From positions 2,353 to 66,352 of the forward strand of contig DATJPG010000072.1 of the NCBI GenBank assembly GCA_035506515.1: DNA of 64,000 bases, in the 5' to 3' direction. Each line of letters begins with the position of its first letter. Position 1 is the first letter of the stretch. Under the pieces are notes generated by a model. That model was not told the origin of the DNA, made no database searches, and was given only the letters and a program-made list of their open reading frames with translations. The translations under genes and the position numbers were made by a program. Shown in pieces: positions 33,259 to 36,953 of this stretch. The stretch comes from Acidobacteriota bacterium. Its GTDB lineage: Bacteria > Acidobacteriota > UBA6911.

Positions 33259-34311
33259 GTGCCGCGAAATACCAAACGACGAAGGTTGACGGAATTCAGC
33301 AGTTCTGCCGGTTGAGCGAGCAAAATGAGTCCGGCGGTGCTGGATCGGATTTTGTCAAAACTCCCGCGCCAGGAAGACGATCGTCTGCTTGTCGGGTTCA
33401 GGAATAAGGATGATGCCGGAGTCTACCTGCTTCACGAAGGCTTGGCCCTGGTTCAAACGACGGATTTCTTCACGCCGATTATCGACGACCCCTATCAGTT
33501 CGGACAGATCGCCGCCGCCAATACCCTTTCGGATGTATATGCAATGGGCGGCCGCCCCTTGACGGCTCTCTCCATCGTCTGCTATCCGGAAAATGGCGAT
33601 TTGGAAGCACTGGAACGGATTTTGATTGGCGGCCTGGACAAGATGATTGAAGCGCAGTGTACCGTTGTAGGCGGCCACATGGTACGCGACGAGGAGATCA
33701 AATTCGGTTACGCTGTGACCGGAACAATCGACCCCGCTTCCATCTGGGCTAATGCAGGCGCGCAACCGGGGGATGCACTCCTTCTGACCAAACCATTGGG
33801 CACCGGCGTTATTTCAACCGCCATACGCGCCGGCAAGGCGAAGCCTGAATGGGCCGATATGGCCGCACGCACCATGAGCCGTCTCAACAAAGATGCGGCG
33901 GTGGCGCTGATGTCCCTCGGCAGTGCGGTTCACTCCGTCACCGATATCACCGGATTCGGATTCCTGGGGCACGCCTGGGAAATGGCGAGTGCGAGCTGCG
34001 TCAGCCTCCGGTTGGACAGTCGTGCTTTTGAACCGCTCGATGGCGCCATGGAATGCATACGCAACGGCTTTCTAGCCGGTGGGTTGAAAAAGAACCGGGA
34101 ATTCGTCGGAGACTGTGCCGTTTTCGCGCAAGGCATCTCGTTAGAAATGCAGCAACTCCTATTTGATCCTCAAACATCCGGAGGGTTGCTGGCAGCAATC
34201 CAGCCGGACTCGGCCCAGCGCGCCCGGGAGTTGCTGATTCAGGCAGGTTGCCGTGCCATGCAGGTCGGCGAAGTCGTAGGCAAAACATCCCCACTCATCT
34301 CCGTTCGCTAG
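33259..34311 (+). CDS. selD: Selenide, water dikinase; selenocysteine-containing (Sec19, TGA 33313-33315), 350 aa
   Basis: Reading through the TGA gives MPRNTKRRRLTEFSSSAG-U-ASKMSPAVL, matching the RLT...G-[C/U]-x2-K active-site loop. Also DDAGV, TTDFF, SDVYAMGG, GGH, DITGFG, DPQTSGGLL. GTG start with a GCAGGA RBS. Confidence 0.92.
33329..33345 (+). promoter_or_regulatory. Candidate bacterial SECIS stem-loop
   Basis: GTCCGGC-GGT-GCTGGAT stem; the G-containing apical loop starts 21 nt after the UGA. Confidence 0.55.
34264..34309 (+). repeat. selD 3'-end repeat copy A (the functional gene end)
   Basis: 37/46 nt identical to 34910-34955. Confidence 0.85.
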
Positions 34312-34330
34312 TACCTGACTTGACCAAATT

Positions 34331-34369
34331 AGTAACCACATTTTTTGCCGGATACTCCGATCAGCCCCG
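34331..34369 (+). repeat. 39-bp perfect direct repeat, copy 1
   Basis: AGTAACCACATTTTTTGCCGGATACTCCGATCAGCCCCG, identical at 34808-34846; weaker similarity extends about 18 nt to the left. Confidence 0.95.
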
Positions 34370-34427
34370 CAATTTCTTCCCTGTCCAGCACACGATCTAA
34401 TTGCTCGGCGGCTAAATGAGCCAAAAT

Positions 34428-34505
34428 TTCTTCGCGGTCTTTGCGGTCTTCGCGGTTTATTTCTTTCCAAAATTGAACCGCGAAGACCTCGAAGACCGCA
34501 AAGAA
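34428..34505. repeat. 30-bp imperfect inverted repeat built from 9-nt units
   Basis: Arms 34428-34457 and 34476-34505 pair at 27/30; unit CCGC(G/A)AAGA x3; 18-nt spacer. Confidence 0.9.
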
Positions 34506-34512
34506 GACATTT

Positions 34513-34790
34513 TTATGGGCTTCGTACTTGTCGTTCACGCCAGATTATGCGCTGGATTCCATCCCTGATGCGCGGGACCTTCCAGCTAATCAGGAAGTCG
34601 ATGGAACGCCCGCTCAGCTTGAGATAGGTAAGCAACTGGGCTCGATGGACAGGATGGATCGCATCGACAGTTTTGTTTTCGACGAGTATGCATTCATCAA
34701 CCAGGAAATCGGCCCGATATCCACAATCGAGCACGACCTCTTTGTAGCGGATAGGAACAGGATATTCCGTGTAGACATCCAGCGATAGAA
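34513..34790 (-). pseudogene. GxxExxY family (PD-(D/E)XK-like) protein, N-terminal third missing
   Basis: YPVPIRYKEVVLDCGYRADFLVDECILVENKTVDAIHPVHRAQLLTYLKLSG...RIRDGIQRI matches the family C-terminal part. The GxxExxY motif itself is absent, and the ORF-track N-terminus comes from the repeat. Confidence 0.78.
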
Positions 34791-34908
34791 CCTGATTTGA
34801 CTGAACAAGTAACCACATTTTTTGCCGGATACTCCGATCAGCCCCGGCCATTTATCAGCAATTTGTGAATTAATACCGAGATTTCCCCAAAAATCCGGTC
34901 AAGTCAGG
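34791..34908. mobile_element. 118-bp MITE/REP-like unit
   Basis: Left end CCTGATTTGACT (10/12 match to the TIR), right end GGTCAAGTCAGG; contains direct-repeat copy 2 (34808-34846). Confidence 0.5.
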
Positions 34909-34909
34909 G

Positions 34910-34955
34910 GTTGGTGAAGTCGTGGGCAAAGGCTCCCCGGTCATTTCCGTTCGCT
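34910..34955 (+). repeat. selD 3'-end repeat copy B (displaced gene fragment)
   Basis: Encodes VGEVVGKGSPVISVR versus VGEVVGKTSPLISVR in selD. Confidence 0.85.
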
Positions 34956-34977
34956 CGTATAGTGCGTCATTGATCCC

Positions 34978-35005
34978 TTGACATTTAGTCGGTGTGAATT
35001 AGATT
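34978..35005 (+). promoter_or_regulatory. Orphan sigma70-like promoter overlapped by a palindrome
   Basis: TTGACA-16 nt-TAGATT; GTGAAT-tag-ATTCAC (34994-35008) overlaps the -10. No + strand gene follows. Confidence 0.35.
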
Positions 35006-35080
35006 CACTCAAAGGCCTCAAAGACAAAAATATCCACAGATTTCACAGATTGAGGCATGGGGGCGGCGCCTGGAGTTGCC

Positions 35081-35806
35081 TCAATATCGGAAGGTGGCCT
35101 TTTTGATCTCTTTGCGGAAATCCAGGCCGCGAATTTCCACTTCCCTGCACATTTCATACAGGCGCGAACGCAAGCGCGTGCCGATGCGGTCTGTCAGAGA
35201 TTCCTCTCCCTGTTTCGAAGGAGTATCCAGGTAGTTGGACGTGAAGATCGTCAGCTTCTTATCGTTGTAGCGGCAGTTAATGATGTGGGCGATCGTGTCC
35301 CGTACCCATTCCGTCGGCTTGTTGGCACCGAGCTCGTCAAGGACCAGGACCCGCGCTTCCAGAACGGGCCTCAAAACTTCCAACTCGGACGTCTGCGAAA
35401 CGGAATTCCAGCTCGCCTGTATTTCCCTCAAGAGATCGCGGAAATCATAGAAAAGGCCTCCGTCTCCTTTTTCCATGACCACCTGTTTCAGCAGCGCAAC
35501 AGCCAGGTGCGTTTTTCCGACACCACAGTTGCCGAGGAACAGCAAGCCGACATCAATCTGCGGATACTTGTCCAGAAAGCGCTGGACGTAAATTTTGGCA
35601 TTCTTCTGCGACTCATGATTCGGCAGATAGGAGTCCAGATCACAGTGCTCATACCGTTTGGGAATTCTGGCTTCGGAAAGGAGCCGTTCCACTCGTGCCG
35701 ATCCAATACAGCTGCAGCGGCGCACTTTCGCGCCATTTTCCGCCGGCTCCCAGCCGGATCCGCTGCATTTGGGGCATATCTCCGGGATTGACGATTGCGT
35801 GCTCAT
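35081..35806 (-). CDS. DnaC/DnaI/IstB-family AAA+ ATPase with an N-terminal Cys cluster
   Basis: CPKC...CSC, Walker A GNCGVGKT, Walker B LVLDELG, FTSN, RLRSRL. Confidence 0.85.
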
Positions 35807-35903
35807 GGGAAGATCAGATTAGCACAAGATGGGAAATTCCAAAGGCCATTTCTTAATCGCGCGCGAAAACGCGCATCGTTGCCTCAACCCAATGCTATTA
35901 GCC

Positions 35904-36953
35904 TCAAGGTTGACGCGGTCCAGCCTTGGTGGCGTCTTCCGGAGGAGGCGACTCAAGCTGCTTCGCCTTCAGTTCCGCATACATTTTTTGCACATTCGAC
36001 GGGAAAAAGTTCTGGAACTGGTAGGAGGCATATTTTGCAGGGATCTGAAGATCCCGCGTGGCTAGCTCTACGTTGTCGCCGCGGTCAACGGCCGGCTGGA
36101 CCAGGGCTTTCAGATCCTCGAGGTATTGCAAAAACGCTTCCACATCTTTCTTCGATCCGACCGCACCATGTCCGGGCACGAATTTGTCTGCGTCCAGTTT
36201 GACAAGCGCGCTCACAGTTCCGATCCAGGCCAGAATATTTGCATCCTGCACATTCGGGATCGCGTTGTTAAAAAACAAGTCTCCCGCAAACACGACCTTC
36301 TGCGCAGGAAGATACAGAACGATATCTCCGTCCGTATGGCCTTTGCCCAGAAACAAAATTCGGACTTCCTGCTTTCCATCTTTGATCGAAAAACTCTCGT
36401 CTGCGGTAACGACCGGAATCGTGATCTTAAGTCGCGCCATGGTTTGCAGGTAATCCTCACGGCTCTTGATTTGTTCGCGCAAGCTCTGACGCAGCGTGGA
36501 ATCCGTTTCCTTGAGCGCATCCTTTCGCAGTTTTTCGATCTGCGCCTGGCTGATCTTGATCGTCCGGTTCCATGAGGGCAGATCGAGTTGCAGCATGTCG
36601 CGCCGGGCGTTCGAGCTGCTGATCACCTGTGCCCCTGCAAACACCTGGTTTCCGTGTGTGTGGTCGGAATGCCAGTGGCTGTTCACGACATAGCGCACCG
36701 GTTTTGGCGTGACGGCCCGGATTGCTGAAAGCAGGGATTCTCCACCTTCCGGCGTGAAGTGTGTGTCGAATACCAGCACTCCCTGGTCTAGAATGGCCAC
36801 ACCGACGTTCGCGACTGCCTCTCCGTCAGCGCTCACGACTCTCGCATACACACCATCTGCAAGCTTCGTAAGTTCGGTAGTGTCCCTGGCTGCAGAGACG
36901 GCGCAAATCAAACAAGTGATTGCCAGTAGTGAAAAGACAGTTCGGATTATCAT
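35904..36953 (-). CDS. Secreted metallo-beta-lactamase-fold hydrolase (cyclase-like)
   Basis: Signal peptide, SHWHSDH, GHTDGD, FAGDLFF, VPGHG. Confidence 0.88.
   Translation of the reverse strand: MIIRTVFSLLAITCLICAVSAARDTTELTKLADGVYARVVSADGEAVANVGVAILDQGVLVFDTHFTPEGGESLLSAIRAVTPKPVRYVVNSHWHSDHTHGNQVFAGAQVISSSNARRDMLQLDLPSWNRTIKISQAQIEKLRKDALKETDSTLRQSLREQIKSREDYLQTMARLKITIPVVTADESFSIKDGKQEVRILFLGKGHTDGDIVLYLPAQKVVFAGDLFFNNAIPNVQDANILAWIGTVSALVKLDADKFVPGHGAVGSKKDVEAFLQYLEDLKALVQPAVDRGDNVELATRDLQIPAKYASYQFQNFFPSNVQKMYAELKAKQLESPPPEDATKAGPRQP

Follow-up and report, generated by a model that had tools for sequence, protein, structure and literature searches.

Two copies of the selD end flank debris of a GxxExxY cassette in an Acidobacteriota genome

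INTRODUCTION

The classical signature of an attachment (att) site is a pair of imperfect direct repeats, about 50 nt long, where a conserved gene has its 3′ end. Remnants flanked by such sites are termed cis-mobilizable elements (CIMEs) (PMC5704250, PMC7563491). The DNA analyzed here, a window of 64,000 nt from an uncultured bacterium of the Acidobacteriota (Terriglobia) known from wetland metagenomes (GenBank assembly GCA_035506515.1, contig DATJPG010000072.1, positions 2,353 to 66,352 of the forward strand), has an arrangement of this kind. The end of selD, the gene for selenide-water dikinase (selenophosphate synthetase), is found a second time downstream of the gene, on the far side of an insert carrying pieces of a GxxExxY gene. 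The original prediction, made from the DNA letters alone, took selD for an att site and its present end for a possible replacement supplied by an element. Like CIMEs and other islands at gene 3′ ends, the locus has imperfect direct repeats of ~50 nt that include the gene end and flank foreign DNA, with the gene left intact. Unlike them, it has no recombinase, no island cargo, no occupied site among 80 related selD loci, and repeats that are both native.

Other described systems share different parts of this picture. As in miniature inverted-repeat transposable element (MITE)-like elements bounded by terminal inverted repeats, the insert has inverted termini (12 nt perfect; 15/17) at its exact boundaries, belongs to a multi-copy, decaying set and lies between convergent genes, with no working enzyme in the window copy. 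However, its duplication is 51 bp rather than 2 to 15 bp, and another copy, L089, has none. Moreover, the cassette has no known transposase, whether of the DDE type or another, its associated gene encodes a GxxExxY protein of PD-(D/E)XK fold, and folding of the 119-nt module at its end gives no long hairpin (z -0.7 to -1.8). Repetitive extragenic palindromic (REP) sequences and REPINs with their RAYT genes, and the intervening sequences of 23S rRNA that bear an open reading frame (ORF), also combine short repeats with one small gene, occur in gene-less or decayed copies and are extragenic; the cassette differs in having neither an HUH/Y1 transposase nor an rRNA setting, and in its target duplication, which REPINs do not make. 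Finally, templated insertions made by microhomology-mediated break-induced replication (MMBIR) or fork stalling and template switching (FoSTeS) are described mainly in eukaryotes (e.g., PMC5120786). The selD locus has in common with them a mosaic donor insertion flanked by a target duplication, with 4-6-nt microhomology at the joins; it differs in that the donor breakpoints are at the canonical ends of a repeat family and the host is bacterial. As for the gene in the insert, GxxExxY (TIGR04256/PF13366, PD-(D/E)XK) is to our knowledge a very large family whose function is not known and on which hardly anything has been published. Of the papers that our literature search found to mention it, one does so only in passing, with nothing on mobility.

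RESULTS AND DISCUSSION

The last codons of selD recur beyond a GxxExxY insert

In the window, selD occupies positions 33259-34311 of the plus strand. A repeat search found its terminal segment, 34263-34313 (copy A), again at 34909-34959 (copy A′, plus strand), with 41/51 nt identical (80%) and a spacing of 646. Copy A is the working gene end, consisting of the last 15 codons, the TAG stop and a further TA; A′ is a displaced, decaying selD end. That the last 15 codons recur 646 bp downstream, as originally noted, was confirmed not only by the repeat search but also by blastn of the region against the whole 64-kb window (E = 1.6e-7), by tblastn of the 15 codons (13/15 residues identical to the downstream copy, E = 2.9e-4) and by Smith-Waterman local alignment of flank against flank (score 52, reached by 0/500 shuffles). 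The two ends encode the peptides VGEVVGKTSPLISVR, followed by the stop, in A and VGEVVGKGSPVISVRS... in A′. The repeat extends 5 nt beyond the last codon, as TAGTA in A and TCGTA in A′, so that the downstream copy, with TAG changed to TCG, has no stop codon.

The insert itself is 34314-34908 and starts 2 nt past the selD stop. Thus selD is intact, was never interrupted by the insert and needed no repair, which disposes of the suggestion of an element that repairs the gene. Both junctions are marked exactly by the arms of an inverted repeat that is perfect over its 12 nt (12/12): CCTGACTTGACC occupies 34314-34325, and GGTCAAGTCAGG occupies 34897-34908. Everything between these ends is best described on the minus strand, where the order is a full end module (34908 to 34790), the C-terminal part of a GxxExxY gene, its stop, an inverted leader, a loop, the leader with the N-terminal part of the gene, and a partial module (34369 to 34314).

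The C-terminal part lies in a truncated GxxExxY ORF (34513-34851, minus strand), in which it alone is true homology. This ORF matches PF13366 (PDDEXK_3) at E = 8e-18 over profile positions 39-117 (score 65.4, cut-off 22) and TIGR04256 at 72.8 bits (cut-off 35) over positions 38-116 only; by tblastn, 34782 to 34531 is 88% identical to residues 73-156 of the intact relative P0124. The N-terminal fragment (34368-34460, minus strand) is made up of the charged leader NREDRKDREE and ILAHLAAEQLDRVLDREEIA. It corresponds to P0124 residues 6-37 (34460 to 34368; tblastn, 81% identity, E = 3e-11), and its region is matched by positions 93-184 of the intact cassette in locus L088 at 82%. In contrast, tblastn found no counterpart in the insert for P0124 residues 38-72 (RHIVDSAVAIHIALGPGLLESVYRRCLMYELRLRG), the 35 central codons with the GPGLLESVY/GxxExxY motif. 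With its C-terminal part preceding its N-terminal part, the gene is circularly permuted; permuted and motif-less, it is a dead pseudogene. Between the two parts, the leader and its inverted copy, both built of 9-nt-periodic words, form a hairpin with 35-nt arms (34428-34505) at a tail-to-head junction of cassette ends. The arms are 86% complementary (DNA fold, -31.1 kcal/mol; z -7.3), and the hairpin is the repeat of highest depth in Logan contigs.

Outside the gene pieces lie the end modules. The complete one, 119 nt long (34790-34908, minus strand), has the termini CCTGACTTGACC (34908 to 34897) and AGTCAAATCAGG (34801 to 34790) and includes B2, one member of a second direct repeat (B1/B2; 34306-34369 and 34783-34846, 64 nt, 89% identity). 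The partial module, B1 (34314-34369, minus strand), is the 3′ 56 nt of a cassette end module; it ends in GGTCAAGTCAGG (34325 to 34314), abuts the selD stop at +2, and is homologous to L088 611-659 at 86%. Between B1 and B2, 7/26 nt differ nearest the terminal repeat and 0/38 in the remainder. Uniform decay is no explanation for such uneven divergence; gene conversion is a possible one, as is descent from different source copies. We rejected the idea of B as coding sequence for the GxxExxY motif, read in a different frame, as intact relatives and the L088 DNA show that B is a flanking module. Folding of the module in the manner of attC or a REPIN was likewise rejected, given z values of -1.8 and -0.7 and the lack of a Y1 transposase or IntI gene in the locus.

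Profile searches with the ORFs of the insert returned only PF13366/TIGR04256 and no recombinase, integrase or transposase. The neighboring genes are dnaC-like, metallo-β-lactamase (MBL)-fold and HtrA, with no integrase-like ORF in or beside the insert, and Rfam gave for the insert region only generic, sub-threshold chance matches to hairpins.

Relatives have an empty spacer and a single selD end

The gene order pal-ybgF-ssb-selD, followed by a convergent dnaC/IstB-like gene, is common to three relatives, L001, L082 and L083, whose SelD proteins are 73%, 87% and 85% identical to that of the window. In all three, the selD stop and the stop of the dnaC-like gene are 7-13 nt apart; in the window the distance is 769 nt, meaning that ~750 nt were inserted in the window lineage. 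The expectation that relatives would have an empty site with one selD end therefore held. The locus thereby offers a clean comparison of an occupied with an empty site for a GxxExxY cassette, with inverted termini at the insertion boundaries.

The closest relative, L081 (SelD 94% identical; synonymous divergence, dS, 0.23), is uninformative as an empty-site comparison, its contig ending 83 nt past selD in unrelated sequence. This segment (L081 4019-4101) has neither the dnaC-like gene nor a cassette after selD, and a convergent ORF ending in ...GQERGPFYYSDRLL and a stop overlaps the selD stop. In this clade, the junction between selD and dnaC may be open to change. A search through dnaC-like homologues for the dnaC side of the L081 lineage found none above 88% identity.

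Both selD ends are of native descent

An alignment of A, A′, L081, L082 and L083 was used to polarize the changes between the two ends. Copy A has 2-3 derived changes, all silent (CCG to CCA, ATT to ATC); A′ has 7-8, namely silent changes at three third positions, the replacement of Thr by Gly and of Leu by Val, and the change of TAG to TCG. At 7-8/10 polarized sites A is closer than A′ to the relatives. Moreover, at three sites (GTC, GGC, CGC) A and A′ are alike and both unlike L081. The terminal codon runs from TAT (L082, L083) through TGC (L081) to CGC (A and A′), and the CGC shared by the two copies indicates that the duplication postdates the split from L081. Some 3/8 of the A′ changes are silent, which fits neutrality. 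By this alignment, both ends are of native descent, in the pattern predicted when one copy (A) is kept by selection and the other (A′) drifts, and a foreign donor is not needed. The lineage states common to A and A′, together with 2-3 derived changes in A versus 7-8 in A′, run counter to the proposal that the present selD end is an element-derived replacement. The mostly synonymous divergence behind that proposal was indeed seen, but it is no sign of a replacement end, since A accepts only silent changes and this constraint suffices to produce it.

The insert belongs to a multi-copy cassette family

Intact GxxExxY relatives are 139-160 aa long (e.g., P0124, with the sequence MVFCILNREDREDREEKILAHLAAEQLDSVMDREEVARHIVDSAVAIHIALGPGLLESVYRRCLMYELRLRGLDVYAEYP..., and P0127), and the window fragments are 81-88% identical to them. 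As DNA, cassette copies outside the window were compared in two loci. The intact cassette of L088 has the order short B-like repeat, leader, gene, stop, inverted leader and B module, the last ending in GGTCAAGTCAGG (648-659). In L089 a 118-nt module with the ends CCCGACTTGACCGG (2808) and CCGGTCAAATCAGG precedes the leader, and GGTCAAGTCAG (3277) closes the cassette. This module (2808-2925) has the ends and spacing of the end module in the window, and the alignment score of its 3′ 32 nt was reached by 0/500 shuffles. Ends of this type bound GxxExxY cassettes in Acidobacteria other than the window organism.

Multi-copy status was measured in metagenomes, from Logan depth and from the contig L086. 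The depth of Logan contigs is 125-326 over 34340-34700 and 7.5-14 in the flanks, an excess which shows that the interior of the insert belongs to a multi-copy family, and L086 carries a cassette copy diverged by 9%. The GxxExxY cassettes are a decaying, selfish-looking family.

Several features of the family can be added. Many subfamily members have differing internal in-frame deletions or fusions (P0162, P0163, P0168, P0170, P0177, P0180, P0184, P0185, P0213 and P0219), and several of these remove the central motif region that is absent from the window copy. The leader (NREDREDRE, in 9-nt periodic words) recurs in inverted orientation right after the stop, so that the gene lies between inverted word arrays; these arrays are at 90-122 and 566-587 in L088, at 2961-2994 and 3229-3253 in L089, and at 34428-34505 in the window, where the two abut tail to head and resemble a tandem or circle junction. 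The cassette genes are found between convergent genes in 6/7 contexts (the window included), often within ~60 nt of the neighbors' stops, which fits passive survival where insertions are least harmful.

Insertion by the cassette ends is the favored origin

Both boundaries of the insert coincide exactly with the termini of the family. On this basis we favor, with moderate confidence, a cassette-end-specific insertion of a non-autonomous GxxExxY cassette with a 51-nt target duplication. The family consists of a GxxExxY PD-(D/E)XK nuclease gene, a charged-leader word array, its inverted copy, end modules of ~120 nt and inverted termini of the CCTGACTTGACC type. A non-autonomous cassette of this multi-copy Acidobacteria family would have inserted 2 nt past the selD stop, in the short spacer between selD and the convergent dnaC-like gene, and the insertion would have copied 51 nt of host DNA to the other side, as when two nicks ~51 nt apart are filled in. 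The upstream copy would then have stayed with selD under purifying selection, while the downstream copy drifted and lost its stop. With its gene permuted and the motif codons missing, the insert is now inert; if it moved as an element, it would have done so in trans, by means of intact paralogues. Two parts of this account are inferred: recognition of the ends by an activity specific to the element, and a single event as the source of both insertion and duplication. For the most part the explanation is an ordinary one, namely a repeat-cassette insertion with a native target duplication. What is left as an oddity is a 51-bp duplication that abuts canonical cassette ends.

Several observations weigh against such an insertion. 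A target duplication of 51 bp is far beyond those of the transposases we know of. In L089, the one further complete copy whose two flanks were available, the flanks are not duplicated (score 18, reached by 59/500 shuffles), and the insert in the window contains no transposase or recombinase. The 4-6-nt microhomology at both junctions, GCAGG/TCAGG and CGCTAGTA/CGATAGAA, fits an untargeted repair accident equally well. The interior is scrambled, with the C-terminal part before the N-terminal part, and B1 and B2 differ at 7/26 and then 0/38 nt, so that the account needs at least two events, or gene conversion. Lastly, A′ has changed by ~0.16 per site, slightly above the per-lineage dS of ~0.12 since L081, even though the shared CGC dates the duplication to after that split; both values are based on small numbers.

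A repair or replication accident is the rival to be taken most seriously, and we consider it possible if somewhat doubtful. By this account, a fork that had broken or stalled at the selD end switched by microhomology into cassette copies elsewhere in the genome several times and returned 51 nt upstream of its point of departure (MMBIR/FoSTeS-like, or end-joining capture plus fill-in). Microhomology is seen between native ...GCAGG joined to TCGG and the insert end ...TCAGG joined to GG, and between native CGCTAGTA and cassette CGATAGAA (B2) or TAGTAGC (L088). The account is also consistent with a mosaic interior, put together from non-contiguous parts of the cassette (module, C part, hairpin, N part, partial module), with the missing recombinase, with the unduplicated flanks of L089 and with selD not being a recurrent target. 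Random template switches, however, would not be expected to place both donor breakpoints exactly at the canonical termini of the family. Moreover, 4 nt of microhomology is weak evidence, and the mosaic could equally predate or postdate the insertion.

Beyond the favored end-specific insertion at this one locus, we regard as rather unlikely the larger idea that GxxExxY cassettes are genuinely mobile, with a chemistry that leaves a staggered target duplication of ~50 nt by ends of the CCTGACTTGACC type; the footprint would be readable here since selection on selD froze one copy. If true, this would be the first mechanistic handle on the movement of the large GxxExxY nuclease family. Recurrence of the duplication at other copies would define the element ends and constrain the insertion mechanism; otherwise, the locus would be another case of repeat-mediated scrambling between convergent genes.

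It is improbable that cassettes were already in the spacer when the selD end was copied by some subsequent rearrangement of the locus, either unequal recombination between cassette repeats or tandem duplication followed by deletion; the duplication would then have nothing to do with the insertion event. Such a history would suit the presence of at least two, and possibly three, cassette pieces in one spacer (34314-34908 and a remnant at ~35007-35034), and a locus that has recently undergone recombination or conversion, as the 38 nt identical between B1 and B2 show. But a simple tandem duplication predicts matching sequence after A and A′, and the sequence that follows A′ is unlike that which follows A; we rejected this version of the rearrangement for that reason. 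In addition, the boundaries of the duplication coincide with cassette termini.

selD is not an attachment site

The model of the original prediction was a site-specific integrative element, by now a decayed, cis-mobilizable remnant between attL and attR, with an attP that contained the selD 3′ end and a recombinase lost or acting in trans. In its favor, the 51-nt direct repeats match the classical att signature, and A′ adjoins native-like spacer. A scan of 82 selD loci, in which the last 60 nt plus 5 of each selD were compared by blastn scoring with 4 kb on either side, tells otherwise. A second selD end was found only in the window and in its twin L087, which served as positive controls (E = 1e-9); the other 80 loci had no second copy of their own 3′ end, only chance matches of 16-27 nt. 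With 0/80 other loci duplicated or occupied, selD does not behave as an attachment site. The larger recombinase-bearing islands expected at occupied sites did not appear at these 80 related loci either, and the gene tables of the relatives show no recombinase or island after selD. The insert, for its part, starts after the stop codon and has no integrase-like ORF in or next to it; instead of an integrase island, its cargo is only GxxExxY cassette debris with that family's own inverted ends. Finally, A and A′ share lineage-specific states, with A the closer to relatives at 7-8/10 sites. The integrative element is on these grounds very improbable. Of the picture of a decayed element without an integrase, there survive the insertion, the missing recombinase and the displaced selD end beside spacer-like sequence; the integrase island does not. 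For selD itself the outcome is unspectacular. The gene is intact and does not serve as an attachment site, nor does the locus contain an element that repairs it.

Independent assemblies carry the junctions

Another sample (L087, ENA k141 assembly) has the identical structure, with 12 mismatches in 12,306 nt relative to the window and 1 mismatch inside the insert. A JGI contig (L085) is identical to the window over the selD end and for 186 nt beyond it, and each of the two outer junctions is contained in Logan unitigs from two wetland runs that match at 100% (34098-34360 and 34817-35900). An assembly artefact or two-strain chimera, which could be suspected because repeats in the insert fragment assemblies (contigs stop at 34360, 34499 and 34817) and because L086 departs at 34438 into a different locus, has next to no probability, as L087 holds the whole structure and L085 and the unitigs carry the junctions whose support was to be checked.

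An exact 22-mer of the B repeat, searched in metagenome contigs, matched only the same organism (L085) and, by chance, one unrelated high-GC gene (L084). The ENA contig L086 (6300-6838) has flanks 99.9% identical to the window and is 9% diverged over 34442-34707; it exits at the hairpin (window equivalent 34438 leftwards) into a gene for a ferredoxin-like 4Fe-4S protein with a twin-arginine translocation (TAT) signal. Either the assembler has joined on a paralogous cassette copy, or the contig reflects a true rearrangement at the hairpin.

Other features of the locus

The selD gene matches TIGR00476 with 358.9 bits and is of the selenocysteine (Sec) type. Its in-frame UGA at 33313-33315, in the motif SSSAG-U-ASK when TGA is translated as U, is conserved in six relatives (L081, L082, L083, L001, L002 and L003). 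The GTG start (33259) lies 66 nt upstream of the ATG chosen by ORF callers.

Downstream of A′, positions 34960-34975 (plus strand) resemble the native selD-dnaC spacer, with TAGTGCGTCATTGA against AAAAGCGATCATTCA in L083, a weak likeness of ~13/20 positions. A further insert of ~100 nt (34976-35077), absent in L082, L083 and L001, contains at ~35007-35034 what may be a decayed remnant resembling the inverted leader; its alignment to the 3′ end of L088 is marginal (score 23, reached by 3/500 shuffles). Then comes the convergent dnaC/IstB-like AAA+ gene (35081-35806, minus strand; PF01695, NF005992), identified also by synteny as the immediate neighbor of selD in relatives. Between it and the htrA-like gene lies a gene for an MBL-fold hydrolase (35904-36953), which is present in L082 and L083 and absent in L001.

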